A DNA stretch of 59,119 nucleotides, filler included, from Sphacelaria rigidula (taxonomy: Eukaryota), in NCBI GenBank assembly GCA_964200075.2. It is 5 parts of 5 records of this genome, joined end to end, with 100 filler letters (N's around TTAATTAATTAA, not from the genome) between each part and the next. Parts side by side here need not be neighbours in the genome. Positions count along the whole stretch, not along the records: positions 23,691 to 35,435 come from CAXNAA020004562.1; 4 more parts are not named here. One strand, written 5' to 3'. The notes beneath the pieces are model-generated. The model was not told the origin of the DNA, searched no databases, and worked only from the letters and a program-made list of their open reading frames with translations. The translations under genes were made by a program, and so were the position numbers. Each line of letters opens with the position of its first letter. Within the stretch, counting starts at the first letter, position 1. This document shows, one piece after another, positions 1 through 59,029 of the stretch.

Positions 1-199
1 TACCTCGACTCTGCTCATTCATTAGAAGAGGAAAATAAGTCAAAACAAACATGCGCAAACTCAAATACGAGCTCTTTTTTTGAACGTTTTTCACCACCAA
101 TAACAGGAAACGCTTTTCAACGTTTTTCACCACCCCCCCCTGCGTTTACTGTGACGACCGTTTCGAGAAATTGAGCTAATGTGACGAAAAATAATAAAA

Positions 200-344
200 C
201 AATCGAGAATATCGATTTTCGATATTGATATTCGATATTGATAAATATCACATTTCTCGGTTTCCTACGCTCCGATACCGATATGGCATATCGCCGATAT
301 TTATCGAAATCATATCGATTATCGATATTCGATGTGCAACACTG
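200..344. mobile_element. Probable right end of a hAT-like MITE with ATCGAT/CGATA subterminal repeats
   Basis: Dense cluster of atcgat/cgatat motifs ending in gcaacactg (reverse complement CAGTGTTGC, a hAT-type terminus). No partner end identified. Confidence 0.4.
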
Positions 345-782
345 TTGTCATGTGCACGCGTATTTTCCGCCCTCATGTTCTTTATGAACCTTGCTTCGAT
401 CTGATCGAGCTTTTGTGTCGTCACTGTCGCCTGCATTGCATCACCTTCGCCTGACCTACACCTGTTCACCCATAACATCACCGCTGTTCCTAACCAGCAA
501 TGATCGTGTTCCAGACATTCTCCATGTCATTTCGGTATTTTTGTTGCATATTGAATTGGGGCAATCAACCCACCATGATCAGTATGTACTTTGTTTCCGG
601 AGTCGCATTTTTATTGTGGCCATGGGGATTTATGGAATGCACATGCAGTAAAGCTTCCATTTTATTTCAATCTTGTTTGCTTTTCTTTCATCTTACACAT
701 TCATATTGTCTGCATCTCCGGGTGTCGTGTCCACCATAACTGTCTTTTGAGCCCCTCGATTGTATTTTGAGTGCTATATAAT

Positions 783-3713: not shown

Positions 3714-5272
3714 CATTTGGTAACATACGGGTACATGTGTGAGCGAAGGCGCGTGGGCTCTATTTCCAGTAGAATAGGCGTCAGTAGTTCTAGAAGAGCA
3801 ACCCTCAAAAGCTGCACTCCTGTAACTATTGATCGGTTCGTGGAAAGGTTGTTTTTAGCGAGGTTCAAGCCCCGCACTGCCCAAGAATCCAGTGTAACTG
3901 ATCCGGGGTGTCGACGCGCGATCAAGCTAACTAGCCGATCGTTCTCCAGTCTAACTGAGATCCCGGGAAAACGACAGCGACCGTACTTGTCTGCTGTTCT
4001 ACCTATCATCAGCCTGAAGTCCGTTCGCACCGTACTCTGAGCACGGTGGGCATCAAATCAGTCCCGAGCAAATATTTGGATCTTAGAAGCGCGGACAATT
4101 CACCAATCAACAGTAGTCGGTTTCATCCCTTTCGACCTCATGTCAGGGGAAACAAACCTGCCCGTTGAAGCATTTTTGTTTTACGAGATTTCGGTCCCGA
4201 CTACATTCCGATCTATAATTCACTGATAAGAGCATTTGGAGGCATTTCAGATCGGGGAGCCGAGAGAGTATCGTCCCGAAATTCCAATGTTAGTATCAAA
4301 GCTACACACAAGAGACGGAACGAGCAAGGAAACTCTACGCGCAGGGGACATGACACATTTTTCGTTGTTAGAGTAGAAGCTACGGCGCAACTTGTCCCAG
4401 TATATCTCAGAAAATATGTACTGTTCTTCCGCAAACTGATATGGCCCTTGATCTCGAGTCAAATTAATCCCCTGAAGTGACAACCATGGCAATAATTCAG
4501 CCGCGCATAGTCACGGAATAAGAAGTTCAATCTTTCGACACGTCCCAGGCGTTCCAAAGACTGATCGTGGCTCAAACAGTACAGTCTGTATATGGTCAGC
4601 GGTGAATAAAGCAGCTATGGTCCAGATAGCCAATTCATCTAAGAGGCACGCCCGCCATATAGAGCGTAACACTCTGTTGTCATGAGGAGCATTGTAGCCT
4701 GTTGTCATGCCGCCTCAGACCCGTCGATGAGTCCGGCTCATATTTCATCCAGGCTAAATCCAAATTTGTCCACCGGGTTGTTGGCTTTTACATGGACCAG
4801 GACGGCATCTTTCCTGGGGAGGGCATCACGTCCCTCACCCTGGGACAACTGCTCTTACACATGACCACTGGCGCAGGCCCTGATCAACCAAGATATGTGG
4901 AAACTGTCACCGATCTTTTTGCGGCACTACGTGCCACTTACCACTCAGATCCCGACGCCACAATTGGCGAGAACGACCAGGATGACGATGGTTGGACTCC
5001 AACGAGTGCCAACTGCAGGGGAACGAAGAAGAACCACAGGCGAGACGACGACGACAACGGCGGAGGAGGCTCACGCCGCCGCCATGGTGGTGGAGGATCC
5101 TCCTGGGGCAGTCCCGTACCGAACCGCCCGGTCCGCAACACCCACGGCCCGACCCGGAAGAAAACCTGAGGCAACTCTTCCGCATCTTCCACGACAGGCT
5201 GGAGCCGGTCTAACACAGACGTGCCCCCTTCGGGTTCAGTGACACCAAGGCAGGTGATACCTCAGTTGGCCG

Positions 5273-6790
5273 ATGTTTCGCGTCGTATTTTTGGGTTTAT
5301 CTGATACGGACACACCAGACCGTTCATTGTCTTCTATTGCAGCCCGAGCCTTAGCAACCGCTGCGGCTGACAAAGAACGTTCGGAAGATAGTACAAAAGC
5401 AACTTCCGATAAAGTCGAGTCTGCCCGGGTAGCTGCAATACAGAGACAATATATTCAGATGGATGTGAAAAAGCTTTGGCATATCAAAAACATGCGTGCT
5501 GTGGATAACGAAGAGTCGGGACAGTTTACTTCTGCCATCATCACATCCATTTGTCTTACCGTTTGCAATATCCTTCATTTGGTCCAACGTTTCGAACATC
5601 CCATTTTGGTAGAGGGGTGGCGGACCCGATTGCATAAAGCATTGCATAGATCCAACAGCCGCCGCTCTCCCGACACTGCTGCTTCTTTAACACAGATCAT
5701 CGACGGCTTCTTCGCCGAGATGGATCCGGATCGTGCCAAGGGGAAGACAGACCCGATATTGCTCTCTGATTTGGAGAGGCGTCTGATAGGTTACTTTGAC
5801 AGAAGTGACCAAGCGAGCGCTATCCAAAGACTGAACTCTTTTGCTGTCGCATCGGATGTCCCCTTCGCGGATTATCTTCGCGAGTATAAGCTTTTAGCCT
5901 CCGGTACTACGGGTGTCGGACGCCAAAATGGTCCGGGCGACGCAATGTGTCAGACTTACGTTCGCAATAGTGTTACTCAGGAGTACCCGGCTCTGATGCC
6001 GTCGTTGTTTCCGGGTGTCTTGGCGCATTGCGAGGTGCCTTACGCCTCCGTTGATGCTATGTGGTCTACTTTTGTACACCAAGAGGGTAATCTAACGCCC
6101 GCCATACGTGGCAAACCTTCCACTCCTCTGCGCTCACAACTCACGGTTGTGTCCTCCGCTTATGCCCAAGGGTCTCGCGGCAGGAATTCGAGTTCACCCC
6201 GTACTTCATGGACTCCCGACTCGGTTGCCGGTTCAGTTATGCACGTTCAGAGTATCAGATATGCATCTAGTGCGAGCTTTGATGGTTGGCCGCTCTCCGA
6301 AGAAACTTGGGATGATGTTTGTTTGACTTCAACAACGGCATTCCTTGCGGATGATCCCCATTTGTGGAACCCACTTCCTTCGTCTCCTGCTAGACGCAAC
6401 GCCTTCAGCAGCCATGCCAACCCTTGCACCAACTGTAGTGTTCAAGGCCACAGTATGCGCGACTGCGATAGCTCATGCATCAATGCCTTTCATCTCATGA
6501 ACCCTGAATTGCAGGACAATGAACCCGCGTGGCGCCGATGGCAAAAACGCATGCGTGACTATCGCCCACCTAATCGAAATTACCGCAATAACTCGAATCA
6601 ACGAGGCAACCATCGCTCTAATCGCGGTCGCCGGCAAAACAACAATAATGCAAGCCCTCGTCAGATCGATCATAGTCCTTGCGACAACAAACGATGCACT
6701 GATAGGCACCAGCAGACGGGCCCGACACAAAATTCGAACCCCAACACCAAAACCCCTGGTACCTTCACTACGGATCGCATCGACTCATGA
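5273..6790 (+). CDS. gag: Retrotransposon Gag-like protein, 505-aa open frame
   Basis: Exact CX2CX4HX4C knuckle (CTNCSVQGHSMRDC) followed by an R/N-rich tail, immediately upstream of pol. The true start may lie in the disrupted segment 4699-5270. Confidence 0.75.
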   Translation: MFRVVFLGLSDTDTPDRSLSSIAARALATAAADKERSEDSTKATSDKVESARVAAIQRQYIQMDVKKLWHIKNMRAVDNEESGQFTSAIITSICLTVCNILHLVQRFEHPILVEGWRTRLHKALHRSNSRRSPDTAASLTQIIDGFFAEMDPDRAKGKTDPILLSDLERRLIGYFDRSDQASAIQRLNSFAVASDVPFADYLREYKLLASGTTGVGRQNGPGDAMCQTYVRNSVTQEYPALMPSLFPGVLAHCEVPYASVDAMWSTFVHQEGNLTPAIRGKPSTPLRSQLTVVSSAYAQGSRGRNSSSPRTSWTPDSVAGSVMHVQSIRYASSASFDGWPLSEETWDDVCLTSTTAFLADDPHLWNPLPSSPARRNAFSSHANPCTNCSVQGHSMRDCDSSCINAFHLMNPELQDNEPAWRRWQKRMRDYRPPNRNYRNNSNQRGNHRSNRGRRQNNNNASPRQIDHSPCDNKRCTDRHQQTGPTQNSNPNTKTPGTFTTDRIDS

Positions 6791-6848
6791 CGTGCCGACG
6801 CCGGCGTTCAAAGGTCGTCCGCACCGCCTACAGCACGAGCGAAGAGTT

Positions 6849-7070
6849 TTTCAACACAGCCCGCGGAGCCCGTGACTGAGATTGCTCACCCGACTCCTCC
6901 GGCATTATCCAGAAGCGCAACTGACGGCCGTTCGAATCGACCTCCGTCTCCACCCTCCACACACATTTCAACACAGCCCGTAGAGCCCGCGACTAAGATT
7001 GCTCGCCCGGCTCCCCCGGCACTATGCAGGAGCGCAACTGACGGCCGTTCATATCAACCCCCGTCTTCAC
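6849..7070 (+). repeat. 117-bp (39-codon) tandem repeat in the gag-pol spacer
   Basis: tttcaacacagcccg at 6849 and 6966; the peptide PPAL.RSATDGRS appears twice in ORF 6872-7519. Confidence 0.8.
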
Positions 7071-7939
7071 CCCCCCACACACCGCGTATCAATTGTGTCA
7101 CCCCGCGACTCAAACGTACATCCGGCCCTGAACTTGGTCCTTCAGTGCCGAGTATAAGTCTGAGGTGTGGGCGGACCAACCGCCAGCCCCTGAGGCAAAG
7201 GCTTCCCTCAGCGACCGCACGCACAGGTAGTAGCAAGCCGTTTCCAGCTGACCCAAGTGTTGCTGATTCGAACTTGGCCATATCGGATCATGTAATTTCC
7301 AATCAGTTGGATCGAGGTCCTTCCCCGCGATTTTCAACACGCGCGGAACTACCTTTGGCCGGTTCTAATAAAAACCGCCCCAAAATACCTTCGGATATGA
7401 CCCCCCCAGCCAAGCTTGCCTACGGACAGCAGCCCACAAGTTTCGCTCGATCATGCCCCGATGCTGACCCCATCCACCCGACTGGACGCAGTTGTGGTAT
7501 CATCCCAAAATGTTTTTGAAGTTCCCAGACCATTGTCACGGCGAAAGAGCAAGCCCCGTAAGCATGCCCCCAAGGACGCGCGCGCATCATCACGTACACC
7601 TCTTTCGAGCGGAAATCCTCGAGCTCAATCTCTCCAAAATGCGACGGCTTTGAGTTCGACGGCCCTATCAAGCATCACGGAAGAAACAAAATCAAATACT
7701 TTTGACGTCACAACTTCTTCAATCGACGACTCCAGCCCCGCAAAATCTGTATCCCCCTTCGACGGCGATCCCTGTCAACCAAACAGGATCTTTTATAAAA
7801 TCGCCAATGATCACTGTAGCTGTGCCACACCTGGAAAAAATATACCGTCCACCCCCTTCGCTGGTGAGAATCTAACCCAATCGCGGATCGCCCGCCGTCC
7901 GTTTCTGCTGTCGGCCCCGCTGATCCCGATCGATTTACC

Positions 7940-10330
7940 TTGTCGGAACACGGTTCGGATCTTGTCGGCGGTAAAGTGCCTGTGGATCCGGCCACTTTCA
8001 CTACACGCGTCGCGATCTATTCTGGTCCAAACACTATCACACCTACGAAATGCGTATCCTTGTTGGACAGCGGTAGCCTGAAAGCATTTGTTCGAGAATC
8101 AGCATGGAAACATATCAAGCAGACTGGCGCTACTACTGCATCTTGCGAGACCACCACCCAACCTCGAGTATGGAGCGGTTTCGGTGATTCTACTGCACCC
8201 CTGACGACACAAAAATCTGTACGTCTCGGTGTGCAACCCTCTCACAACACCACTCGTTTTGCCAGCCTAGCCACCTGGGCACACAACGCCCCCGACAGAA
8301 CAATGCATCACGCCATATTATTGGGCAGATATAGCTATATGCGGTTTAATAAACGAACCTGCCGCACGCTTCCACCACCATCGCCACATTCCACGCCTCG
8401 TGGAGAATTCAACCCTGAACACTTGGGTACACTCCACGGTGCCCTGGTCTATCAAAAGAATACTCAAGCAACCGGAGCTGCTCACCACCTACGATACAAC
8501 GGTAGTGTTGGTATTACACTCTCCGACGACCCTCAACTTTTAGAAGTTGCACTAGTTCGACGAAATGGCATGCCAGCCCTTAGAGGTCATTATCTTGCCG
8601 AAATGATACCCCGTATTTGCGCACCAGCCGACACAGAAGATTTTGTCTCGGCGGGACAACAACTCCTCCCTCTTACGGGCCATGCAAACTTGGAACTCGA
8701 CGAATTTTTAGAAATCGCCGCTGCTCCCCTGATGCACATCCCACTCGAGACGAGCCCAACGCAACATCTCCGACGGAGTCAGTCCATAATGTCATGAACC
8801 TTTTTTCGTCCTCGCCTCTGCGACTCCTCCCCAGGTCCACGCCGTGGATCCTGCCCAGTCAAATTCCGATCCTCCTGCTGAAGTGCTTCAACGCTCATCA
8901 CCATATTCCCTGAATAGTTTTTGCAAATTTGGTACCAATTGCCGCCACACATGCGTGACATTAATTTTGACCTTCATGGGTCCGGCTGGGAACCGGCAGT
9001 CATCCGAGAGCTCTCAGTGATGTCCTGCTACAATACCAAGACCGATTTTCCAGCTCTAAGACGGACCTTGGGCATTGCAAAACGCCGCCCTTTGAGGTTA
9101 CCCTCCAACCCGGAGTTTCGCCGACCTCTTCTCGATCATACCGGACAAACTAAGTCCTTACCAAGAAGGTTAACGTCATCTTGGATGCATATTTGGGAGC
9201 GGGACTGAAACAATATATAGATATCCTCTCCTTGGGCCTCGCCACTTGTGGTCGCTCCCAAAATGGATGGAAAGATACGCATAACCGTGTATTACGAACT
9301 GTTGAACCGCGTCACTGTGGTTAGTAAACTTCCAATTCCCCGCATTGATGAAGTCTACGGCTCCTTAGGCGAAGGGAAAATATTCAGCACCTTCGACCTC
9401 GCTTCTGGATTTTTTTAGATTGCTATTCACCTTAACACAGTCCCACTAACGAACTTTTGTATCTTGTCCGGACTCTACGAGTGGCTTCGAATGCCACCAG
9501 GCGCTTCCACTTCCCCGGGATGCTTTCAACGCCTAATGCAACGTGTCACCGAGGGCCTCGAGCATATCATCATGTACCTAGATGACGCTATCGCTTTTGA
9601 TGCCTCTCCTATTGCACGTATCCGCACTCTACGAGAATTTCTCTCTCGCCTACGCACACACGATTTGAAACTGTCTCCACTCAAAGCTCGACTTGGTGCG
9701 ACTGACTTGAATTTCCTGGGGCATTGCATTTCGCCAGCAGGACTGCATCCGGATACAAACAAAGTCAGGGCGATGACTGACTTGCCGATGCCAACTAACA
9801 TTTCTCAACTTCGCTCATTCATTGTTGGGCGGACTATCCTACTACCACGAATATTTGCCGACTTTATCCAAACGCATTCGTCCCCTTCCTGAGTTACTCA
9901 AGAAAGGAGCCGTGTTTTTCTTCACAGCCGATATGGAGAATATCACCCGCGAAGTACTAAAGACGCTTACCGAAAATACTTTCCTGATTCGAAGGCAGTA
10001 CAAGATGGCTCTCGCCTTTTCCAACTCCACACTGACGCCAGCACAAACGGAGTTGCAGGAGGTTTGAATCAACCTCAGGTTGATGGCTCCGTTCGACCCA
10101 TCCTCTACATCAGCCGCATCACCCTGCCCAACTAGGCCAACTGGAGCCCGCTAGAATTGGAAGGCGGAGTAATCATCTGGGCCATTAAGCGCCTTCGACA
10201 ATATCTGTCTCATGTGTTCTTTGAGATTTATACGGATCATGGGGCACTCGAACAACTCGCCAAGGTTAGCGAACACAACCCGCGTGTATAACGATGGTTG
10301 GAGTTTCTAAAAGCAAACTAATGTACCATT
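7940..10330 (+). pseudogene. pol: Gypsy pol pseudogene: aspartic protease, RT, RNase H
   Basis: Protease SLLDSGS (~8060). RT SPWASPLVVAPK..LPIPRIDE..FDLASGF*..YEWLRMPPG..MYLDD..FLGH (9225-9730). RNase H LHTDAS..RPILYISR..LELEGG..YTDH..RW (10020-10310). Several stops and frameshifts. Confidence 0.92.
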
Positions 10331-11745: not shown

Positions 11746-11845
11746 NNNNNNNNNNNNNNNNNNNNNNNNNNNNNNNNNNNNNNNNNNNNTTAATTAATTA
11801 ANNNNNNNNNNNNNNNNNNNNNNNNNNNNNNNNNNNNNNNNNNNN
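11746..11845. other. Artificial contig spacer (N44-TTAATTAATTAA-N44)
   Basis: 100-bp spacer with stops in all six frames, identical to the other three spacers. Confidence 0.97.
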
Positions 11846-23590: not shown

Positions 23591-23690
23591 NNNNNNNNNN
23601 NNNNNNNNNNNNNNNNNNNNNNNNNNNNNNNNNNTTAATTAATTAANNNNNNNNNNNNNNNNNNNNNNNNNNNNNNNNNNNNNNNNNNNN
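23591..23690. other. Artificial contig spacer
   Basis: N44-TTAATTAATTAA-N44. Confidence 0.97.
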
Positions 23691-23758
23691 GGCATCAATT
23701 TCAAGTGAAAAAAAGTATGCATGATCCAGAAAGACTAATCTCGCGGTCTAAGGGTTAA
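23691..23758. mobile_element. Probable piggyBac-type element end at contig start
   Basis: ...gcggtctaAGGG|TTAA, i.e. a CCCT terminus plus TTAA target. The other end is not in the contig. Confidence 0.4.
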
Positions 23759-26700
23759 AAGTGATGAAGCGGGCGTTCTGCTCGAGAGGGCCTCGGCACA
23801 GGTGTGACCACCTACTGACGTGTTCATTATTCCCCCGCACTTCTGTTTATTTTTAGTTTGCCGCTGATTTCTTGGTCGTTAGGCCCTCCAGTCCCACCCA
23901 TGACTGTTGTGGTTCTTTCTGTACTACGTGCTAATCGGGGCAAAAAGAGTGAAGAGGCCATTCGAGCAAATCATTAACGACCACAGACAAAAAATCTCGT
24001 TTTCCTTCTTCGTCCTGGGGGATTCTCCGCCCAAATACACCTGTTTTTACTATCCAATCTCTTGATGGGTTGGCGCGCGCGCAGGCAAACACCCTCCCTG
24101 TTCATACACTCTATCCCTGGCTGACCATCCACAACCACCCTTCAGCCCTGGTCTTGTCCGTGTGCTTCGAAGGCGTACGCTTTGAACCTGAAAGAACATG
24201 GCTCCATACCCATAGGGTAACCTCTGCATTGAATTAAATTAAACGCGCGGAACACGTTATTTTCAGGCAGCACGCGCGCCAGCGCGTGCGACGTCATGCC
24301 AGCAGCGCACTTGTGCACTACAGCGTTGTGCTCCCCTGTGGCAGCCCATCACGGAATCGCTCCTCATGTTTCATCATGCTTTATTCGGAAACACGCAAAA
24401 GAGATGCCAGCGAGTCCATCGTTATTCCGCTTGGAGGTGTAGAATAAGTTTTTTTGTCGATCGAGTACTGCCGCATGCTGAGTGCTGTACATATTAGATA
24501 CCGTACTACTCGTAGTTCAAAACGGATACTCGTATGCATGAAAAGATACGACCGGCATGCTCTGCTTATCATGAATTGTTCACGAGGTGCGGGAGGCGTA
24601 GTTTCTGTCAAGGAATGCAAGGACGCAACGGTACTGCAGTACAGGCAGTTTTGATTATTGGCATGAAACACGTGATTCGAACGAGACACAGGACAAAGCA
24701 TTTACATTATAATACCTGGGCGTTGTGGTACTAAAATGAGTCCCGCCAGTCCGTCCACTACCTACCCTAAGGAGATAGATACCACGTGTAAATGCAGTAT
24801 AAGTTACCTTATGCTCGACTCTACCATGACATGCCGCTGCGACTTCTCACTGTAGCGTCAACACTCGTTTCGCTGTCATCACACAAAAATATACGAGCAG
24901 TTTACTGTAGACGACGAAGAAAGAGTAACATGGATAGGTACTTGACCTAAACCATTGCTTGAAAAATTTTCACCATCGAACTGTAAAATATTAATAGTCA
25001 CAACCAAACGCCATATAGAATACCAGTAGTACCTGAATACATGTTCTCCATTTGTGTCCTTCTCTCGACCACTTGACTATAGGTGAAAACACAAATATCG
25101 CACATAAATATAAAAATAAGTTAGGTGACGCCTGACTCCAACATGCCATGCCGCCACGAGTTCTTAATGCAAGTGGCAACACTTGCTTCGCTGTCACTGC
25201 ACATAAGAAGGTACACACAGTTGTACTGAAAACGACCAAAAAATATTTACATCAATGGGTACTTGAACTGCATCATTGCTCGAGAACATCACATCATCAC
25301 GTCGCAAGGAGCCCAGGTCATGACGCGACCACTGCTTCATGTGCACGCTCCGGTTGAAACTGTAGTGCTACCTAGCGGCGCTCTTACGCGTTGTCAAAAG
25401 TACACATTTTCCGAACGGGGCGGTCAGTCAACTTGAATGGCTGCCGGTTCCACGGCTGGCTGTGCTCTCGCTTTCCTTTTCTTCTTTGGCGGCATAGCTC
25501 CCAGGCAACCTCCTGGATGATCATCATCACCCGTGCAGCGGCACTCCTCGCCACCAAAGCGGCGGATGCCTGTGGCTGTGCTGTTGGGGATTGGGCGACG
25601 GCGCATGTTTTGGGGGACGGAACACGTCGCGCCGTCAATGATGTTTACGGCAGTAACTTTTCTAGCTTTAGGCAAACTCTGCCGATGGTACTTCGCGAAC
25701 GGCCCAATCTGACATTTGACACCTGAAACGTTGCTGGAGTTGACACCATCCATGGCTCCGCCGCAGCTGCCGTGGCGCCTTCGACCACGGCAGGAATACA
25801 AGGGCTGCCGCGCAGTGAAGCATTCTTCTCTCTGACAGGAACGCATGGCCTCTTTCTGATTGATTTTATCGTGATACCTGAGTCGTGGTGGGAAAAGGTG
25901 AGCATGAAAAGCACAACGACACCGAGCATAATGTATATACGGTATGATGGGTGAGTACAGGGCAAAGAAAAAACTGAACGTACATGAAGTTCGACTCAGT
26001 AACTTCAGAACAATCTACACCGTCCTTCTCGACGCTGCATGTGACTTACGATGCCCAGTAAGCTTTCATGTGAGCAGCTGCGTTCCTGAATATGTGCGAT
26101 ACTGGACTCTTGCTTTTCTCCATGAGCTCCACACTCTGGTTCCACTCAAGCGCAAATCGGTCGAAGTTCAGGGAACTCTGCCCGCTGCCGCTGCTGATGT
26201 ACTTTGGAAAATCCGAGTCGAACTTGGCCCTCTCCGCCATGGTGATCAGCGGTACCGCGGGGATGGTGAATCCCTGCATTTCGCCGAGCGTCGCCGCGGA
26301 CTCGATGAAACCCTCGAGCGGCAGCACTTTGTCAACCCCCGAGTAGATCCCATCGGCATCATCGTCGTCACAATCATCATTTTGCGCAAGAATGCTGGAC
26401 ACGAAACCACATTTCTCTCCCGTGTCGCGGTAAGCACCCGTAGGAACCCAGGTGGGGTACTGTGCCTCTCCAAATAGAATGTGAGTCATCCTCTGGAGAT
26501 GGGCAAGCGTATGTGAGAGCAGTCGAAAAATCAGGAAGTGTATCGAGGGATATTGCATCGAAAGTTTGTTGAACATCAGAAGGAAAGTCACCCTGGCAAA
26601 ATACCGGACTTGTCACAATACGGCGAGCAAACATCACTACGAAATCCGCCTGCCCGATAACATCAGGAATATTCACACTGATCCTAACAAGAACAGGGGG

Positions 26701-28589
26701 GAGAGATCGCAAGCGATTTTTTTCGTAGCTGCTGCTGTGTGCATGAACACGTGATACCTGAAGAGCTTCGATGACGGGTTGGTCGAAGAAGCCAGCCACG
26801 GCAGGATCAAAACGCCTGTTCTTGTCACCTTGTCGCATGTTCCACTGGTAGTTGTGTTCAAGGAGCATGCCGTTGGCTAAGGGCGGTGACACAACCCACG
26901 ACATGAGCATTCGCATGCGCAAGTGATAGCCCTCGAGGTCATTTGTCCCACGTACGCATCGGTATTGCGGCGCCCCAGTCTCTGGGTCCTTCCCAGTCTC
27001 GAAGTACAGAGGAACCCCCGACAAGATCGCTGACGCACCCAGCGATGATATGCTGCCGGAGTCGTTTCACCGCTTCCCATGCCTCGGGTCGCAGGAGAGG
27101 CTGCTTGGTCTTCTTGTCGATGACGTTGCCGTACACCCGATTGACGAGATCGAATCGTTTCAGCAGCTCAGCTGGAAGAGGAATGAACCTATATATTGAG
27201 AGCAATAGAAAACAAGAAACGAGGAATTAGCGGACGGGGACATTGGAGTAATGAGACAAGAGGGTACGCACAGGCGTGTATTCTAGCTTGACCAAGAGTT
27301 GAACAGCCGACACTGCTCAAACGTGAAGTCATCAAAGAATTCACGCCGTGAAGGGGCTGCATACCCGATGTCAACAACAAACCCCACCCAACCTTCGACA
27401 CTTCGAGAGGAAACATCCCCAGTCCGTTCTCTTCTCCTCCTCGATTTATTCTTCAGAGTAGCCCATGTGCCGTAAAGTTTCAACTACGGTGTCGAAGTCC
27501 TTCTTATATAGTCGGAAAAACACGTCCCGAAGCCATCCAGTATACGGAGAAGTGCCGCCGTGAAATTTGGGGGTCAGCTTGGTCACCCGTTGCATAGCAT
27601 GGAAGACATCGAGCTTAACTTCAACCTGAGCAGTCTGCAAAGCATTGAAGCGAGCGTTATGTTGTGCACGGGGGGAAAGCGGGCGTTAGTGTACGACGGG
27701 TGAAAAACACTGCAACTGAATGACTGTCCCCCACCAATGACAACAAAGTGCAAAGACCCGTTCACTCCGCCAACAATCATCACCTGGAGAGGGTCATGTT
27801 CTTGTTGTTCTGTGACGACTTCGTCAAGTATGTCCACATTAGTAGGGTCTGAACTGTCGAAGCCGCAAGCCTGGAGGAAGATTTCTCGCGCATCCTCGGT
27901 TTCGAACGCTGAAAGGTCCAGCTCTGCCGCCGCCCGCTCCTCGGCAGAAAGAGATGCACCGGAAGCCATGTCCAGCAGATCAACCGCAGCCGCGCTTAGT
28001 TGCTCCAATCCGCACAGCTCTCCGACGAAGAAAGACCCTTATGGGGTTACGTACAGACTCTCAACAGTGAAGTCCTTGTGACACCCAGCGATCCGGGCCT
28101 CAGCACCCGCCCCTGCGACCGCGCTGCTGGCGGCGCCCGCTACCAAACCTCCGCTGCTGGCAGCACCAGCTTCTGCAGCCCTACTGCTCACCGTGCCCGT
28201 CCCTGCGCCCTCGCTGCTGGCAGCGCCCGCTCCCACACCCCCGCTGTTGATAGCTTTTCGCATGCGACGGCTGTTCCACAGCACGAGCTCGCCCACTCTG
28301 TCGACGACCTTCGCCCTTTCTTGAGTTCCACCTCTGTCGCTGTCTTGGTACATGACGTGCGTTCGATTTACCAATGCCCGATCAATACGCACAACCCATC
28401 GTTGCGGTTTGTTTCGAGTGGTTCGTTTGCCGACCGCCAATCCCGAATTGCCCCACATGTGATGCGGGTATTCCTCTAGAACACCTTCCGCGACACAAAC
28501 AGGGCCTGTCTCCATGTAGAGACGGGCAAGATCCCCTGCCTTGAGATCATCCGGCTTCTCGAAGATGGGATCTGATAGCTGCACAATAC

Positions 28590-29440
28590 GGCCATAAAGC
28601 GCGAGCGATGCATGCGCATCTCGTGCAGCATACCTGCGCAGTGTAGAGGCGACGGATGCAAATGTGTGGAGTGATGGTCAAGAACGACGAAGTTTAGCAG
28701 GAGAAAATGCATCGACATAAAAAAATGACAGCAACACTGCGAGCTGGAGCCACGCCATCATGATGTCAGTAAACAAGAGGATGGCGCGGTGTGCAGTCAG
28801 CTTGCTCAAAACTGCGATTTTCCTCTATTGCGGAAGTGGCCCTGTTGACTGCAATTCACACGCCCCTCTGTAAGAATTCAACAGTAGAGGTCCACGACAA
28901 TTCAGGCAAACAGAACATAAGGATGACATCATGTCGACGGATGCAATCGTTCGGAAGCAACAAGAACAACACAACATGCCTAAATCCGCATTACAACCAA
29001 CTGCGGCAATACAAACACTCACCCCTTCTGGGCGTCCGAAAGATTCAGCGTGTTCCATTTTGACACCCGTACATGTTTCTCTTTCTCCAGGCGCTTTCCG
29101 AGAAGGTCAGCGCATAGATCTGCGAGACCGTTTCTTCCCAACTTCACCTGGCGGTCACGGCCAAACCTAACCAAGTCGACGGCGTTCGCGACTTCCACGT
29201 TGTAGAAATTCCGTAGCCGTGTACAGTCGGCAGAAATCGCAACACCGGCCTTCACGATCTTTGAGTTCTCCAAAAGATCCTGCAGTGACGATGGAAGCCC
29301 CTTGGGTGCCAACCTCTGGCCGTGCAAAACTTCAAATATCACCACGAGTTTTCCTGCAGCCAACTGAATAACGGCAGGAGGATTTTGAGAGCTACCGACC
29401 CCCGGTAGCTCTCACTCGATGTCCAGGCCCATAACGTGGT
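28590..29440 (-). pseudogene. WRN/Mut-7-like DEDDy 3'-5' exonuclease domain within the transposase gene
   Basis: ExoI VMGLDIE(*, where W is expected), PAVIQLA, ExoII KAGVAISAD, RVSKW..LSDAQK, then across intron 28634-29022 ExoIII YAARDA. Confidence 0.88.
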
Positions 29441-30332
29441 CGTTCGCCGCGACCTCGCCCTCAAGTTTTTAGCACAAATCTTCCAACGCACTACTCTGCT
29501 GGCTTGCCCGAACGCAAACAACGTCAACATCATCCAGGATCTCATACAGCGGCTGTTCCGGTCCCGTTGGCTCCGGGTCTCCGAGGCGGTACTCCCACCC
29601 TTCGTCCCGAAGTTCGTTGAGTATCTCACGGAGAAGCTGTTGGTCATCACAACACAAATCCGTGTACAATACCCGAGGGAGCTTGAATCCGCTGTCTCTG
29701 TAGCGAGCCCTCAGCAACAGCTTCAGGTCTGCCTTGATCTTTCTTAGTGATGCGCCAACCAAGCCCTTGTGCATGACCACCTACAGCACAAGAAAGCGAC
29801 ATGCAAAATACATAAAAAACAGACGAGGTGGGCGCTACAGCAATCGACTCAATACGCATACTGGGGTACCGTACCGTACAGCACTGCAAACATAACGGGT
29901 AAGATCACATTATTCATGAATGCGACATAGCCTCAGAACGACCTTCGGTTTATCATCACCGCACTGACTGACCGCACACCGTGGCCCACCTGCTCGAACT
30001 CGTTGAAAACGGTCATCACACAGTAGATGGGCCGTGTGTCTGTCCCTTTCCCATCGTGTAATCGAACCAATTTGACGAATTTGTGCGAGCCGTCCATGCT
30101 GAGCACAGTCCCATCAATCTGCTGTTGGCGTCGCTGCAAGAAATATTCACGAGTCCAACCCTCCTGCAAGTGCGTGGGTCAGGAGAAAGTATCGATGGGT
30201 AAAAGAAAAGGTCACCATCGCAACGGAATAATCAGTAACAAGTTGGGGACACGAGCAAAAACATTTTTCGTATACAAAGAGACCAAGATTAGCCAACGTT
30301 GCAAGAGAGTCGTGAATATTCTATCAACACAC

Positions 30333-31312
30333 CTCGCCCTCCCCTCCTTTGACATAATTGTCGAGCCTGGCAACTGGCCGCCTCTCCTGGACTTCATGCC
30401 ACAAGGACCTGAGGTAGTTCGCAGACGGAGTGTTGCCATTGTAATACCTTCGGTTGTCAAAGTCGCTGAATATTTCCTCCTTCACCGGTATATCCACCGA
30501 GGGGATTCTCCTATCCCACAACAGCTTGCTGTAGTACGTCATTTCTTGGTCGTGGTAGCGCACTAGATGCGTTTGCCTGATTCTCTCTGCACAGGCTTTC
30601 AAACTCTTCCCTCTTCCAACGACGTTGTCACGCAAGTCGTTGACGATATCCTTGTGCACCGCTGACTTCTTCGTGAGGATGAACGGAAAGCTCTCCTGAA
30701 CGTAGATGGGAAGCTGGCTCAAGACCGCGGGGTCCCACGCCCTGAATGATTCAGGTACCTTCTTCTGTTCCTGCACGAGGGTAGTTTTCATTATGGACGC
30801 GCACAACGGTTATCATTCGCAAGCGGCGGGAGTGTCCAGCAAAGCAACTCCAAGGTCCTCCAGCGAAAATATACGATGAATGAATGTTTTGGCTAGTTCG
30901 GCCAAGCCATGTAAAAAAGACATGCCATCAACAGCGAAAATATGAAGACGTACTTCGTGCTCTTGTTATCGTTTTCACAAGCGTGACATATGTACCAGTA
31001 CGTCGTCATGTCGCAGCACTCGTCCCTTATAACGCCCACTCTGGATATGTGTGAGATCCACCCCTTCTTGGTCACATCCTTGGCGGTCTTGTGTCGGGGG
31101 CAAGGCAGCTTGTCGCCGAAGTGCGCTTGTACTTCCGGACATTGCATTTCAGGCCGCCACACGAACACGGGGCGTAAATGGAAATCGCTCGCCCGTGTTC
31201 GGGCGTTAACTACAGGGTTTCGCGGTCTCACGAAAAAATCGTCGTACGGGTAGCTGCTTGCTTTCGCGATTTCCCTCTGCACCTCCTCCACACGCTGTTG
31301 CTGCGGAGTCAA
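30333..31312 (-). pseudogene. DUF6729-like Cys/Zn-binding N-terminal domain (two exons)
   Basis: FHLRPVFVWRP..LPCP..GW..SRV..YICHAC, then SFRAWDPAVLSQLP..FPFILTKKSAV. The pattern is recalled as DUF6729 and has not been HMM-verified. Confidence 0.65.
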
Positions 31313-32993
31313 CTGCGGCTGAAGAACATCACAGCAAATGCGAGTGAAGATCGGCAGCCAGGGAGCGAAGGTGAATGCAAAGTCAGTTCACTGTGCATTT
31401 CTGTAATGCTCATCACAGTACAGCACAGAACAGTACACCACACCAAAACAGCAAACGCGTTCATGCGGCTGCCTGCAATTATGCGAAGCTAGGGATGCCT
31501 TGTACTGTACCATGTACCCGCAGAAGTGGTTCAGAGTGGTCTACTTCTACCTGTCCAGATCTGATCGACCTGACAGTCGCCGCCACCTGCCGCGCCACCT
31601 GGAGCATCACCTCGGACAACGCCCGCCGACCCACTCTGCTGAGATGCAAAAAGTCCCTCGTCCGCACCGATGTTACTACCATCCTGCTGCCGAGTGCCCC
31701 TTGGTCCTCCGCTCGCACGAGAGCTTCCACCACCCCCATGTGTTCCTGCTGATCCTCCGCTGGCTCCAGAGCTGCTACTATCCTGCCCAGTTCCGCGTGA
31801 CTCCCCGCTTGCACGAGAGCTGCCATAATCTCGCGGAAGTGCGCTGGAACAGGAGCTTTGAACGTCTTGATGAGTTGCCGATGATCCCCCACTGGCACCA
31901 GAGCGATGACTACCCTGCCGAGATCTTGATGGTCCTCCACTGGCACCAGAGTTAGAACTTTCAGCGGCAGGAGTATCGCGCCAGAAGCGTGCGTGGGCCC
32001 TTCGAGAGGCCTCTTCTTTAGCTAACCTTCGCCGTTTGTCGCCAGCGCTCTCTTTGCCAGGTTTCGCTGAACCCGGCCGATTTCTTTTTTCTGGAGGTCG
32101 ACCGCGGCCAGGAGCCACCACTTGCTGCTGACCAAGCAGCAGCAGGGAAAAAACTAGAGCAACAGCTGGACATTTCATGCTTAGTACATGCAGATTTTCG
32201 GCGAACCGCGCCACCCCATGTACAACGGCTGTGTCAACCTCATCCAACTACGTACATTCACTTAGCCATCATCCCAAGCACGCCGCGGTGCTTTCCGCCA
32301 TGCTCCTAATGCTCGGCACGCCCTGATTGTCTATGCACATCAATGCACATCAATGTTTTTTTTTATTGTCAGGCGTCATTTAGGCCATGACTTGAAAACA
32401 ATTATGGGTCCTACTTCGTATACTTTAATCAAGTTGCGCACATCAATACACAGGTTACCCTATGAGCGTGGAGCCTAAAACATACGAAGTATATATTTTC
32501 GGCTTTTACTCATGTGACCGCGGGACGTGCCCTGAAATGGCTACCGCAGGATGATGCATCGGGGTTTGAAGCACCCAACACATACAACAATCTGCATTCG
32601 AATCGCGCCCGCAACCGTGAAGAACCGCGTGAGCAATATTTACTGCTCGATGGAGTTTCCCCTGCAACGCGCCGTCCCCAAAAAATGCTAGTGGAAAACA
32701 ATCACAGCCAAAAGGGGCTCGGGGAAACGTCGCGGGGGAGGTCTGAATCGGTCGCGGAGTAACTTTAGTTTGGTGTGCACATGTGTTAATAAGATGCAGT
32801 CGGACATTTTCTGTTGAGGAAAGCGCCATGGGTTGTGTACACTACCGCAAAAGGAACCTACAGTCTTACGCCAAAAAAAAAAGAAGCAAGTCAACTGCCA
32901 AGATCCCCGCATACAAAAATCATACGCACCTCATGTATCTTTCGACGGTTAAACAGGGTTTAGTACTGTAATTTCAGTACAAATCAAGGGTTA

Positions 32994-33235
32994 TTTTGCT
33001 TGTGGATTTCTCCGACGTGTCTGTTCTATCGAGCCTGAAACTCGGCACAGAGGTAGACCACAACACAGACAACATATTCCCGGAGCGGCGGCACGTTTTA
33101 CGTGGTGCGCTAGACGAACGAAGCAAAATACGGATTTTGGGCAATGCCATCGATACGCCCTCAAAACGCAGTCCCCTCGGCCCAGACTGCGTGAGACGTC
33201 AGTGGATGCATATGTCGACACGCAGATACACTCAC
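32994..33235 (+). repeat. Dispersed repeat, diverged copy at ~39936-40185
   Basis: Shared colinear blocks tgtggatttctc / tgaaact..gcaca / cacaacacaga / aatgcc.tc.at.cgcc.tcaaa / gcccagact / cgcagat.cac. Confidence 0.6.
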
Positions 33236-34220
33236 TTCCTGCTGGGTGGCTCCTGCCCCGGCAAACGAACACATCGATCCGTATTGCGCACACTCTGGAT
33301 GATGTCATTCTACGCGGTACCTATCTTGGTATCGCCTGTAGAGGTGCTCATTTCAAGAGACACGACCGTGCAAGCGCTGTTCGTGCTCTTACGAGCTGAA
33401 ACTTCGACCACATGTCGTGTAGACTACAGACAACAACCCCATCTTGCTGAATCTGGGGTTGCGCGGTGTGTGCGTGCGTATTAGGGCGAAAATATGTCGG
33501 ATTTTGTTCCGATTTTTTTTTTTGGTATAAGACTGCCTAAGGTGAAGAACATGGCGTATACTGGGACAGACAACATCATGGTGACTGAATTATGCTCTCC
33601 TCTTCGTCTTTGGTGTTGATTGTATTGGTACCGCCATGTCCACCGTACCGCCTCAACAGCCTCCGTCCGCTGCGACTTGAGCTTTTACGTCGGGTCACAC
33701 GGACAAGTTTTACTCACCCTGCATTTACTCCGGGTCGGTCATCTGTTGTATCGGCATACTTTCCACTTGAAAAATGAAGGCAAAATCAGATGATCCAGTC
33801 GGAGGTCGGAGAGGCTACCGTCTTCAGATATTCTGACTTGAAAAATGAACACAAGACACCACCCTGGTTCTCAAGCGTCGCTTTTTGAGCGGGCGGGGAG
33901 AGGTGACGCTCTGGGCGCCTGAAGTCTTGATTATGATAATTTCTTCGTAATTGACGATTTTGTTAGGCTCTTTTCCTTGCCACCACCGATCACATTGAGG
34001 ATCTGAAGACTGTGCCCGCTCCCTATTTCAAGAAGAAAAACATCTGTACTCGATATTGAGTGACTTCCGGGCTGATCGGTCATCGGGGGTCCTTTAACGA
34101 TTTAGCCCAGATTCTGACCCTTCGGTATTTTCGGTCGATCTAGCCTATCCCGATCGTATTTGTCAAGAACCATCTTATACAGGCCGGTTCACGCTCATCA
34201 CCCAAAAAACACTCATCGGC

Positions 34221-34495
34221 AAAACCTCACGCCGTTTTAAGGAGGTAGACCCTGAAATTTTGCACGAATGTCCTATGGGTCATTACGCAACTTTGCAGGA
34301 ACGTTTTTTTTTTCCACTTTTTTCACCGTTTTTCGGGGGTCCCAGTTTTTTGGGGGAAACCTCGACCCCATCGGACCCCCGTAAAACGGCAACAAAAAAG
34401 TGAAGAAAAAAACGTTGCTGCAAAGGTGCGTAATGACCCATATAACATTCGTGCAAATTTTCAGGGTCTAACTCCTTGAAAGGGCGAAGGTTTTT
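34221..34495. repeat. ~275-bp foldback palindrome (MITE-like); third arm copy at ~34760-34885
   Basis: aaggag.tagaccctgaaa.tttgcacgaatgt...gggtcattacgca...cgggggtcc pairs with ggacccccg...tgcgtaatgaccc...acattcgtgcaaa.tttcagggtcta.ctcctt. Confidence 0.85.
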
Positions 34496-35435
34496 GGCCT
34501 TTGTTTGATCAAGTTTGCCGTACCGAAGTGAAACCGCAAACTACTCGATTTTAGAATCAAAACGGCGTTTTGGGGCCTTCTTTGACGTGAACATGGAAAT
34601 TCAAGCATCAGTTGACCGAGTTTTGCGACGAAAATTTGTGGAGCCTATCCTTGGGTTATGCGGAGGCAGATAGTTTGCGAAAAAATAAAAAATAAATCGT
34701 AGTGCCGTTTTGTGGGGTCCCAGAAAGGAGACTACCTCGAAAAACGACTTCGATCCCGTCGGACCCCCGAAAACGGTGAAAAACTCAAGAAGTACAAAAA
34801 ACATCGTCCGAAGAAAGATGCGTAATGCTACATGACATACTAATGCGAAGTTTCACGATCTAACTCCTCATGACTGTGAAAGTTTGCGCGTTTGTGGAGG
34901 ACGTGGGCTTGAAACGTGCAACTCCTAACTACTTGGTTTTAGTATGGAAGCGTCTTTTGGGGTGAATTTGACGTTAAGGCAAGAGAAACTGTATGAGGTT
35001 TTTCGAGTTTTTTTCCATCAGACTTTTTACATGTGTTCCTTGGACTCCCCCGGGACGCATCATTTAATTATTTTTCTCTTTTGGCATTCTGTACCGCCTT
35101 CCGGGGGTCTTCATGCTGGGACCCTCGGAAGCCGGTAGAGAACGGATAAAACATTATATATTGCCAAGAAAACAATTTTTCCATTTTGAGCACCAACACC
35201 TACGGAACTGCAGAGTTTGAGGGCGATCTGAGCTTTTCTACAACAGATATAGAGGACACCGTCACGAGGCTCCCTGGGTCTTTCGTGCGTATCATGAGTA
35301 GAAATTAGACAACGCCAACACCCGACATCACCGGAACATAACGGTTTCGGGTATAATTCGACCCCCGTAGTAACCGTTTTGAAAAATATGATTTTCTCGT
35401 TAGATTCCCGTGTCGATGACGGTTACCACGATTTG

Positions 35436-35535
35436 NNNNNNNNNNNNNNNNNNNNNNNNNNNNNNNNNNNNNNNNNNNNTTAATTAATTAANNNNNNNNN
35501 NNNNNNNNNNNNNNNNNNNNNNNNNNNNNNNNNNN
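35436..35535. other. Artificial contig spacer
   Basis: N44-TTAATTAATTAA-N44. Confidence 0.97.
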
Positions 35536-36299: not shown

Positions 36300-37765
36300 A
36301 AAGACTGAAACATTTTCGATTGGCCCTGTACCGGAATGAGAAAACATGATTTCAGGAAAGTAGATTTTTAGTTGTAAAACTGACGCAGATGGTACTATAA
36401 CGAAGGCAAAGGCTAGGCTGGTAGCACGAGGATTCGGACAACGTTTCGCGGTCGACTATTTTGAGACTTTCGCGGCAACGCCTTACATAGCCTCCATCAA
36501 ACTGGTCATGGCAGTGGCAGTTCAGGAAAAGTGGCCGCTGTACCATTTCGACATAACCAGGCTTTTGTTCAAGCGAAAGTGGACCCTGACGTGTACACCA
36601 GGCTGCCTGAAGGTTGCTACGCTTCAACAGACATGGCTGTTGAGCGCGAAACATCCATGTACGGAATCAAGCACGCAGGCAGACAGTGGTCACGTCTTCT
36701 GCGCCAAACTATATTGGAGGATGTCGGGATGGTGCAGTGTGAGGCTGACCGTTGTGTTTTCAAGATGGAGGATGCAGGAGACGTGCGTGTGATTTTAGTC
36801 GTCCATGTGGATGATATTCTGATCAACGGTACTGAGGAAAATTGTGCGAAAGGTGGACAAAATTTTGAACGGCAAGTTCCCCAGGAACAATCTCGGAGGG
36901 GTCACATGGTACATGGGATGTGCGGTGAACAGGGATTGGGATAGAGGCATGCCGTCGTGACGCAAACTACGTTCACGGGCACGCTCGTAAAGTGTTTTTA
37001 GGTGAGGGGATACTCGGAAACTCCTGTCTCTGTTTCAGTTAAGTTGGGGGCCGACAACGGGCGAAGGCAGTGGTGAAGCGCCCATACCGTAACGCAGTGG
37101 GGGGGTTGATGTGGCTGGCAACAGTCACTAGACCTGACGTAGCGAATGCAGTACGAGCCCTCGTTTGCCAGTCATTTGACCCGTGCGAGAGGCACTGGGA
37201 AGCGGTGGAAAAGGTGCTGAAGTATCTTGATAGGACAAAGGAGTTTGGGCTTACGTTCGAGAGAGATCACGACAGGCTTTCAGTTTACTGTGACGCAGAC
37301 TACGCTAAGAAGAAAATAGACGGGCGTTCAGTGTCGGAGGTAGCTGTGATGTGTGGTGGTGCGGTAGTGTCGGCAACGAGTCGCACGCAACTCTGAGTGA
37401 TCTTATCAACCACGGAAGCGGAGCATATCGCAATGGCCGAGGAGGCAAAGGAGGGACTACTCGTGAAGGCAGTGTTGACGTGTTTACGACCTCAGACTGT
37501 GCCGGGGTGCGGGGAGGACCACGGTGTTTTGTGCGAGGACAACAAGGGAGCCAAGGCTCTAGGCGAAAATCCCCTCAATTCTAAAAGGAGTGAGCAAATT
37601 GATGTGAGGTATCACTTCATTCGAGAACTCGTGGGGACGGGAAGGATCAGGGTCGTGCATGTAGATTCAGGATGGCAGCATGCCGATATTTTGACGAAGC
37701 CTCTCTCGATCAACTTGTTTGCGAGGCACAGACGGGTTTCGATGAATTTTGAAGGTGACAAGTAG
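36300..37765 (+). pseudogene. pol: Ty1/copia pol remnant (RT + RNase H)
   Basis: KAKARLVARGFGQ..VDYFETFA; HFDI..AFVQ; YGIKHAGRQW; VVHVDDIL; PYRNAVGGLMWLATVTRPDVA; YCDADYA; LSTTEAE; IDVRYHFIRE; QHADILTKPL. Frameshifted. A PPT-like agcggggg followed by TG occurs at ~38037-38046. Confidence 0.95.
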
Positions 37766-47277: not shown

Positions 47278-47377
47278 NNNNNNNNNNNNNNNNNNNNNNN
47301 NNNNNNNNNNNNNNNNNNNNNTTAATTAATTAANNNNNNNNNNNNNNNNNNNNNNNNNNNNNNNNNNNNNNNNNNNN
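47278..47377. other. Artificial contig spacer
   Basis: N44-TTAATTAATTAA-N44. Confidence 0.97.
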
Positions 47378-54880: not shown

Positions 54881-55130
54881 TGCGGCGAAATCACGCCGTC
54901 CCGATTGAACATATAGTGGATCCTGGATGATGACCAGGGGACAAGGGCATCCTGTGGATGATGACTCTTGCTGTGTAGCCCAGGCCTGATGGGACGGGGT
55001 TGTAGCTGTTTACTCCGGTAATGATGAGGTGTTGTGAAGGCTGACGACTGAGACCTTGAGGCCAGTGAAACTGGGGAGTCCCTCAACAGCATTTAGACGT
55101 TGCAGTACTAGCAACCCTGCTGGCGTCACA
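54881..55130 (+). repeat. 5' LTR
   Basis: tgcggcgaaatc...ggcgtcaca; 12 substitutions and no indels versus the 3' LTR by manual alignment. Confidence 0.95.
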
Positions 55131-55392
55131 ATATCGATATTAGTGCTAGTGCTAGGCGTGCTAGTTGGTGCTATCGTTTGAGAGTGCTGAAATGTTTTTA
55201 GCAGGGAGAGTCTGGACAGCTTGTGATTAGCTTCGGGCATAGAGCTTCATGGACGCGTAAGGAGGTTTCAAGCTGAAGTAGCTGCAAAGGCGGCTGGCCC
55301 GTGATTGATGCAGACTGGAGACTTGCTAGAGCTGCGTACAGCGGATTGTTTATAGGACCCCAGGGCTGTGGGGAGCGGCGAAGAACGCAGGT

Positions 55393-58690: not shown

Positions 58691-58779
58691 TCAGTCGTGA
58701 CTTGCTCAATCGTTTTGGCGTTAGTTTTCTGAGTGTCAAGCTTGTTGCTCGATTCTCGTCTAACACGCTTTGGGGGTGC

Positions 58780-59029
58780 TGTGGCGAAATCACGCCGTCA
58801 CAATTGAACATATAGTGGATCCTGGATGATGACCAGGGGACAAGGGCATCCTGTGGATAATGACCCTTGCTGTGTAGCCCAGGCCTGATGGTACGGGGTT
58901 GTAGCTGTTTACTCCGGTAACGATGAGGTGTTGTGAAGGCTGACAACTGAGACCTTGAGGCCAATGGAACTGGGGAGTCCCTCAACAGTATTTAGACGCT
59001 GCAGTACTAGCAACCCTGCTGGCGTCACA
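58780..59029 (+). repeat. 3' LTR
   Basis: tgtggcgaaatc...ggcgtcaca, 250 bp. Confidence 0.95.

Follow-up and report, generated by a model that had tools for sequence, protein, structure and literature searches.

How does a complete exonuclease come to lie within the catalytic core of a transposase, and to which transposons does such a protein belong? The question is raised by a locus of the brown alga Sphacelaria rigidula (assembly GCA_964200075.2), located on the minus strand at positions 25424-32247 of the analyzed stretch of 59,119 nucleotides (hereafter, the window). The initial annotation described this locus as a Mutator-like DDE transposase fused with a WRN-type 3'-5' exonuclease. Comparison of its motifs, exons, relatives and predicted fold with published descriptions suggests that the region is very probably a decayed, non-functional copy of a cut-and-paste transposon from the Dada superfamily, namely from the exonuclease-bearing lineage of Dada-1_ES and Dada-1/2_LB.

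The window consists of separate contigs of ~11.7 kb each, joined by N44-TTAATTAATTAA-N44 spacers at 11746-11845, 23591-23690, 35436-35535, and 47278-47377. Thus, neighborhood across the spacers is not real synteny, and the real context of the gene is confined to 23691-35435, the single contig that contains the whole transposase-exonuclease gene on its minus strand. The limits 25424 and 32247 are stop-to-stop limits of open reading frames (ORFs) rather than proven gene ends.

Gene structure, conservation and predicted fold

All motifs named in the initial annotation were located on the minus strand within 25424-32247, and the coordinates of the gene given below refer to this strand. The exon limits are approximate and were obtained by tblastn of relatives on the window and a scan for frame-keeping GT..AG pairs. 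The central exon (29780-29023) contains the second catalytic aspartate, D2, in the motif LYTDLCC (29669-29649), followed in the same frame by the exonuclease motifs ExoI GLDIE (29429-29415) and ExoII GVAISAD (29246-29226). As initially claimed, no intron separates D2 from this part of the exonuclease. The intron 29022-28634 (GTGAGT...CAG) splits the exonuclease between ExoII and ExoIII. The next exon (28633-27784) carries ExoIII YAARDA (28632-28615), contributing the tyrosine and the fourth acidic residue, and a long Ala/Gly/Ser-rich linker.

The remaining exons supply the other parts of the transposase. Upstream of the central exon, the exon 30163-29990 carries the first catalytic aspartate, D1, in SMDGSHK (30100-30080); relative P0002, in which the sequence ...NEFEQV|VFQKG... 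continues across the junction, confirms the D1/D2 splice. It is preceded by a DUF6729 exon (30770-30333), delimited by the Pfam match and splice candidates, and by a zinc-finger exon (...31387-30950) with a zinc-finger-like cluster C-x2-H ... C-x2-C formed by LPCPRH (31108-31091) and YICHAC (30994-30977); the relatives have C-x2-C ... C-x2-C. The most upstream open frame (31531-32247) is Ser/Gly-rich, may encode a disordered N-terminus, and matched no Pfam family; its start codon is not established. Downstream, the exon 27634-27393 carries the DxxH signature LDVFHAM (27613-27593), and the exon from 27188 to about 26700 carries the third catalytic residue, a glutamate, in RGTNDLEGYH (26952-26923). 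The C-terminal exons extend from below this exon to the stop TGA (25426-25424) of the last open frame. They include the basic patch PPKKKRKA (25492-25469), which resembles a nuclear localization signal, and a Cys/His cluster C-x-C-x6-H-x3-C (25505-25546). In the relatives, a K/R patch directly precedes a C-terminal C-x2-C finger; the cluster in the window is a possible remnant of a C-terminal CCHC finger, with spacing and position unlike those of the relatives.

Ten ORF pieces of the gene were scanned against Pfam with curated cut-offs, and two of them gave matches above cut-off: DUF6729 (PF20499) at 30324-30809 (E 6.9e-09, 36.1 bits, cut-off 27) and DNA_pol_A_exo1 at 29019-29411 (E 8.5e-08, 32.6 bits, cut-off 23.6). 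In the other eight pieces, no family reached its cut-off, and neither MULE nor any other transposase family matched the ten pieces at E<=1. A literature search on DUF6729 found no paper.

The copy is broken by four in-frame stops and one frameshift. Two stops interrupt the central exon: a TAA at 29471-29469, and a TGA at 29414-29412 that stands in place of the W in GLDIEW of the relatives. The linker after the exonuclease contains TAA at 28041-28039, where the Scytosiphon relative has S, and the DxxH exon contains TAA at 27448-27446, where relatives have Q or E. Between CVSD and VPLYF, the frame shifts by one base at a G5 run around 27015-27027; here, the high-scoring segment pairs of tblastn change frame, with no room for an intron. 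In the conceptual protein, the breaks were read as X and no repair was made. Given these stops and the frameshift, the copy is dead: judging from its sequence, it is a pseudogene unable to make a transposase or to act.

The architecture is preserved in other genomes. The 253-residue product of the central exon, with X at the two stops, was compared by phmmer with 1.84 billion representative proteins, yielding 1086 matches at E<=1e-3, 73 at <=1e-10 and 9 at <=1e-30 (best 5.8e-72), a likeness far beyond chance. Among the 150 matches listed, 34 cross the D2-exonuclease junction in one alignment stretch that begins ahead of D2 (query residue 41) and extends beyond residue 240. The fusion is therefore a conserved feature and not an accident of this locus, and the expectation that similar architectures exist as uncharacterised proteins in databases proved correct. 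Among the matches listed, the nearest relatives are brown-algal, from S. rigidula itself (87% identity over 137 residues) and Scytosiphon promiscuus (63%). The other named relatives come from the brown alga Ectocarpus sp. (32-35%), the chytrids Quaeritorhiza, Blyttiomyces, Podochytrium, Chytriomyces and Phlyctochytrium, the aphelid Paraphelidium, the ichthyosporean Amoebidium (18 members in one cluster) and the agaric Mycena. The junction-crossing set includes proteins of Quaeritorhiza, Blyttiomyces, Podochytrium, Phlyctochytrium, Paraphelidium, Amoebidium, Mycena and Ectocarpus sp.

In eight long relatives, DNA_pol_A_exo1 was found in all eight (above cut-off in seven) and DUF6729 in four (above cut-off in three); in the 44-member family alignment, the exonuclease was found in 42 members, DUF6729 in 17, and MULE in two, both below cut-off. 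An alignment of 16 rows, comprising the conceptual protein of the window and 15 relatives, retains D1, D2, the ExoI D.E, ExoII D, ExoIII Y...D, D.FH and GT(N/S)xxE in nearly all covering rows. The D.FH column is kept in 15 of 15 relatives and the GT(N/S)xxE column in all 14 that reach it; the lone exception in the alignment is D1 of P0035, which is N-terminally truncated.

Two relatives show additional features. The Paraphelidium tribonemae transcript P0079, which bears the exonuclease, encodes a C-terminal Ulp1 domain (Peptidase_C48) at residues 1150-1230 (24.2 bits, cut-off 20.7). The Podochytrium sp. protein P0041 (3352 aa) contains three successive sets of D2 and ExoIII at about 629/847, 1724/1942 and 2835/3053, and probably represents three tandem element copies merged by gene prediction.

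The fold was predicted with AlphaFold2 for residues 1-596 of the compact relative P0119, a homologue ~25-30% identical to the protein of the window, using a 44-sequence alignment (mean predicted local distance difference test 82.7, predicted template modelling score 0.69). The model starts with strand b1 (38-44) bearing D42, followed by b2, b3 and helix a1; strand b4 (106-108) is followed by D109 and helix a2 (111-121). After a2, a complete exonuclease domain occupies about 134-327. The core then resumes with strand b5 (344-346) and D347xxH350, continues into a helical domain and a hairpin, and reaches the helix 493-505 that bears E496. In this homologue model, the core adopts an RNase H fold that carries two inserts: the exonuclease, which separates helix 2 from strand 5, and the usual helical insertion, which precedes the catalytic E.

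Structure comparisons support both parts of the predicted protein. Foldseek with the P0119 model gave WRN exonuclease structures as top matches (E 1.6e-15, TM-score to target 0.84). A second search covered 48,161 representative chains, of which the best 50 were inspected: mouse WRN exonuclease had Z 27.2, and the IS256-family ISCth4 transposase (6xg8_A) had Z 12.5 with a root-mean-square deviation of 4.4 over 245 residues spread across model positions 1..540, bridging the exonuclease insert. ISCth4 was the only entry among these 50 that is neither an exonuclease nor a polymerase. When PDB sequences were searched with a profile, the 42 entries found included no transposase; all were exonucleases or polymerases except one ribosomal protein (E 0.66), with mouse WRN at E 5.2e-54 and EXD2 at E 2.4e-41. 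Thus, the D/D/E segments, which the initial annotation had proposed to check for an RNase H fold, are predicted to adopt it in the homologue. Together with the conserved relatives, this fold and its IS256/Mutator-type best transposase match bear out the initial view of a fusion rather than a nested insertion.

Probable assignment to the Dada superfamily and alternative explanations

Kojima & Jurka (2013; PMC3706591) defined Dada as a superfamily of DDE transposases with DxxH after the second D, distantly similar to MuDR, hAT, P, Kolobok and IS256 and kept apart from MuDR/Mutator in Repbase; Dada is also one of the five C/DxxH superfamilies of PMC9587614. According to the description in PMC3706591, Dada elements contain introns, are 4.7-11 kb long, and encode a CCCC finger at the N-terminus and a zinc finger of the CCHC type at the C-terminus. 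In Dada-U6_DR, the N-terminal finger is C-x4-C-x34-C-x2-C, and D1-D2 and D2-E span 68 and 176 residues, respectively. The same source places a DEDDy exonuclease after the second D and ahead of DxxH in Dada-1_ES of Ectocarpus siliculosus and in Dada-1_LB and Dada-2_LB of Laccaria bicolor, and proposes that it processes ends. The arrangement seen here has thus been in print for brown-algal and Laccaria Dada since 2013. Since Dada is a named superfamily with a published architecture, the initial view of a poorly described lineage that carries its own nuclease holds for the nuclease but not for the lack of description.

The S. rigidula gene agrees with this description in several features. The DDE triad and DxxH are found in the motifs of the window, in the conserved alignment columns, and at b1, b4, b5 and the catalytic helix of the homologue model. 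The N-terminal finger has the form C-x2-H-x34-C-x2-C at 31108-30977, with His as its second ligand, and C-x2-C-x32-C-x2-C in relative P0017. The spacing of D1 and D2 is 75 residues in the window, 67 in P0119 and 67-80 overall, compared with 68 in Dada-U6_DR; DxxH and E are ~150 residues apart in the relatives. The domain between D2 and DxxH is the predicted DEDDy exonuclease that characterizes the Ectocarpus/Laccaria lineage: GLDIE, AISAD and YAARD supply the ExoI D-x-E, ExoII D and ExoIII Y-x3-D, in line with the Pfam match and the WRN-like fold of the homologue.

Several observations weigh against this assignment. In P0119, a C-terminal finger C-x2-C-x13-H-x5-C follows the basic patch; in this copy, no Cys pair follows the patch in any frame, and the C-terminal CCHC finger is not clearly present. 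The assignment is built on architecture, motifs and the published description, as distinct from direct alignment with Repbase Dada, and the predicted fold comes from a homologue ~25-30% identical rather than from the protein of the window. No named animal Dada appeared in three word-index protein searches: the E exon found one Scytosiphon protein, the D2+exonuclease exon had no match, and a five-sequence profile of the DxxH-E part found seven proteins, none of them named, including P0192, which is a C-terminal fragment only. The sole Ectocarpus-labelled relative (P0014, Ectocarpus sp.) is only 32-35% identical; therefore, the copy does not belong to the same family as an Ectocarpus element. 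Finally, the gene is bracketed by a 33-nt inverted pair whose 8-bp flanks match imperfectly, whereas canonical Dada elements are described in PMC3706591 as inserted in small nuclear RNA (snRNA) and tRNA genes with 6-7-bp duplications and short sub-terminal repeats only, without terminal inverted repeats. No tRNA was found in the window, and no snRNA at E<=1 in 23691-35435. In the same description, Dada targets are known only for families with clearly definable termini, and the name Dada-1_ES carries no target.

Other origins of the locus can be envisaged. It might be a true element of the Mutator/MULE superfamily that gained an exonuclease. Among transposases, the IS256-family ISCth4 is its best match in structure, and a sub-threshold Pfam MULE match was found in two of the 44 family members (best E 5.1e-05); in P0070, such a match (E 0.0051, 17.7 bits against the cut-off of 27.6) lies exactly between DUF6729 and the exonuclease. 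An Atlas neighbor cluster (score 0.81) with PF20700 Mutator in 14% of its members provides a lead only. On the other hand, neither MULE (PF10551) nor Transposase_mut was found above cut-off, MULE matched none of the ten pieces of the window at E<=1, and no relative has it above the Pfam cut-off. Moreover, the zinc finger/DUF6729 N-terminus, DxxH instead of CxxH, the multi-exon gene and the embedded DEDDy exonuclease correspond to the Dada description in PMC3706591, which itself reports the distant similarity of Dada to MuDR and IS256 and by which the IS256/Mutator-type RNase H core with a C/DxxH-led insertion domain, seen in the homologue model, is common to Dada. We therefore consider a Mutator/MULE origin quite improbable: the initial Mutator-like label stands as a description of the IS256/Mutator-type fold in the homologue model, but not as a superfamily assignment.

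Even less probable is a domesticated host gene, i.e., a fusion of transposase and exonuclease that the host recruited to repair DNA or process small RNAs. Low copy number, catalytic residues conserved across very distant eukaryotes, and transcriptome-derived relatives in Amoebidium and Paraphelidium would fit such a gene; the four stops and the frameshift of this copy, its position among retroelement debris, and several related, non-identical contigs in the same sequencing runs speak against it, as do relatives that are patchy and often multi-copy within a species (the 18-member Amoebidium cluster, the three tandem units of P0041). Chimeras are conceivable in principle in a window made of a chain of ~11.7-kb contigs, and an exonuclease gene or fragment nested in a transposase intron would also mimic a fusion. 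An artefact of either kind is nevertheless extremely improbable: D2 and ExoI/II share one exon and frame, the whole gene lies within one contig, the stretches 29192-29700 and 28614-29142 are covered by independent run contigs that show 0-13 differences, and the junction is spanned in one alignment by the 34 relatives counted above. An exonuclease-bearing Dada copy thus remains the preferred explanation of the locus.

Candidate ends, copy number and surroundings of the element

The candidate ends of the putative Dada element are two arms of 33 nt at 24200-24232 (left) and 32443-32475 (right), which are 85% complementary and form the only inverted pair bracketing the gene. The 23-nt core of the pair occurs twice in the window, compared with 0.00 expected from 100 shuffles. 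The bases outside the arms, AAGAACAT and TAAAACAT, are alike at 6 of 8 positions. If the pair marks the ends, the element is 8,276 bp long. When the window was searched by blastn with the flanks and end regions, neither a second copy nor an uninterrupted target appeared, and no joint skipping the element was present among the best 15 of 738 joints in the run contigs.

Sequencing depth was summed from contigs of four public runs placed on the window at 85% likeness, from which a ranking by copy number is not reliable. Across 24867-32314, the summed depth is roughly 25-120, or ~1-4x that of a single contig (~23-35; runs X1 and X3), which points to few related copies. A low copy number fits Dada; in a 2025 survey of Ectocarpus transposable elements, Table 1 gives one DNA/Dada family with 15 copies, one of them intact (PMC12477816). 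Both outer flanks have summed depths of thousands to hundreds of thousands. On the left side, the depth runs to hundreds at 24073-24087 and at 24254, to ~20-38 at 24280, and to ~16,000 at 24377; on the right side, it is ~23 at 32158 and ~830 at 32377. Since depth reaches the hundreds outside the left arm (24073-24087) and inside the right arm (32377), the arms lie in moderately repeated DNA. This weakens the inverted pair as proof of the element ends, and we retain it as a candidate only. None of the listed runs with matching contigs is recorded as RNA; contigs of run X6, guessed to be RNA, cover parts of the gene at 85-90% likeness and were not counted as evidence of expression.

Some other features were observed in the same contig. 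Between the gene stop and the candidate left end, the stretch at about 24300-24700 has a depth of ~15,000 at 24377 and 24605 and of ~20-40 at 24280 and 24815; this stretch is possibly a small repeat inside the 3' region of the element. A hairpin at 34220-34496, with 120-nt arms 80% complementary and a 37-nt loop, gave sub-threshold Rfam matches to precursor models of plant microRNAs (MIR837, 48 bits against a gathering threshold of 117). As it lies in DNA with a summed run depth of 10^4-10^5, it looks like a very high-copy palindromic repeat, similar to miniature inverted-repeat transposable elements, rather than a microRNA gene.

The other contigs of the window contain retroelement debris, as judged by Pfam scan. 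On the plus strand, RVT_1 was found at 9419-9892 (E 2.3e-12) within retrotransposon remains that extend over 4663-9892, RVT_2 at 36465-36944 (E 1.2e-10), and a weak integrase core (rve) at 58255-58815 (E 0.0044, below cut-off). A pair of 250-nt direct repeats, 95% alike, is located at 54881-55130 and 58780-59029. The open frame 55330-56169 (plus strand), which adjoins retroelement-like frames, encodes a CCHC-like CxxC...H...C stretch as well as an extended run of Gln (CAG repeat); no Pfam family matched it above cut-off.

Proposed mechanism and comparison with known systems

When intact, the gene would have coded for a large multi-part transposase. Its N-terminal zinc finger and DUF6729 region probably bound DNA. 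The DDE core that follows would have an RNase H fold and be of the C/DxxH type common to MuDR, hAT, P, Kolobok and IS256. Its helix 2 and strand 5 would be linked by a loop housing a WRN-type DEDDy 3'-5' exonuclease, and a helical insertion domain would precede the catalytic E; a basic tail would form the C-terminus. Intact relatives presumably excise and integrate by DDE cut-and-paste chemistry. The exonuclease, held beside the active site, may trim 3' ends that arise during excision or integration; as Kojima & Jurka proposed, the substrates may be either the ends of the transposon, trimmed prior to strand transfer, or the donor flanks, trimmed for repair. We regard the chances that end-processing of transposon or donor ends is the role of the exonuclease as evenly balanced. 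The analyses made here gave no support to the countering of small-RNA silencing, a role suggested in the initial annotation.

A broader interpretation is that exonuclease-bearing Dada elements form an old and widespread clade of their own, present in brown algae, chytrids, aphelids, ichthyosporeans and agaricomycetes, whose WRN-type exonuclease, located in the helix 2/strand 5 loop, would be an obligatory partner in catalysis. In contrast to canonical Dada, its members would end in true terminal inverted repeats (of 33 nt in the present copy), generate duplications of about 8 bp, and not target small-RNA genes. Such a clade would be a distinct branch bridging Dada and IS256/Mutator; we consider it unlikely. 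An Atlas search with the DxxH-E part pointed to unnamed Chordata and Basidiomycota clusters (0.93-0.94), which serve as a lead only and were not used for membership.

With the architecture in print since 2013 and a dead copy, the discovery value of the locus is small. Its analysis extends the exonuclease-bearing form well beyond the two hosts named in PMC3706591 for it, provides a confident predicted topology for the seat of the exonuclease in the RNase H fold, and ties the core structurally to an IS256-type transposase. The intact relatives would lend themselves to the question of what makes a built-in 3'-5' exonuclease necessary for some cut-and-paste transposases.

Comparison with known systems places the locus closest to Dada-1_ES and Dada-1/2_LB. 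Taken by their published description, these elements share with it the DxxH-type DDE transposase, the position of the exonuclease, the N-terminal zinc finger, the multi-exon gene and the element length of several kb, and their hosts are of the same kinds as here (a brown alga; agaricomycete relatives such as Mycena). They differ in that the S. rigidula copy is broken and belongs to another family than the Ectocarpus-labelled relative; Dada families with defined ends, moreover, have no terminal inverted repeats, whereas the 33-nt inverted pair flanks this copy. The canonical Dada-U6, Dada-U1 and Dada-tRNA families of fish, Daphnia, oyster and Perkinsus have the same catalytic signature, similar spacing and zinc fingers at both ends (as in the relatives), but they lack the exonuclease and reside in snRNA or tRNA genes with 6-7-bp duplications, a target not seen here.

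Among more distant systems, the IS256-family ISCth4 (PDB 6xg8), from the prokaryotic kin of Mutator, has the same RNase H core and helical insertion before the catalytic E; it is bacterial, carries no embedded exonuclease, and gave no sequence-level match in the PDB profile search. The DEDDy exonucleases WRN, EXD2 and Mut-7 (Nibbler) share fold and motifs with the inserted domain, WRN being 35% identical to the domain of the homologue; here, however, the domain is inserted in a transposase core and has no helicase or HRDC partner. KolobokD and KolobokE (PMC9587614), described as carrying a DEDDh and a lambda-exonuclease-like nuclease, respectively, and proposed to process DNA intermediates with them, are likewise cut-and-paste transposons with their own exonuclease, differing from the S. 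rigidula element in both superfamily and exonuclease class.

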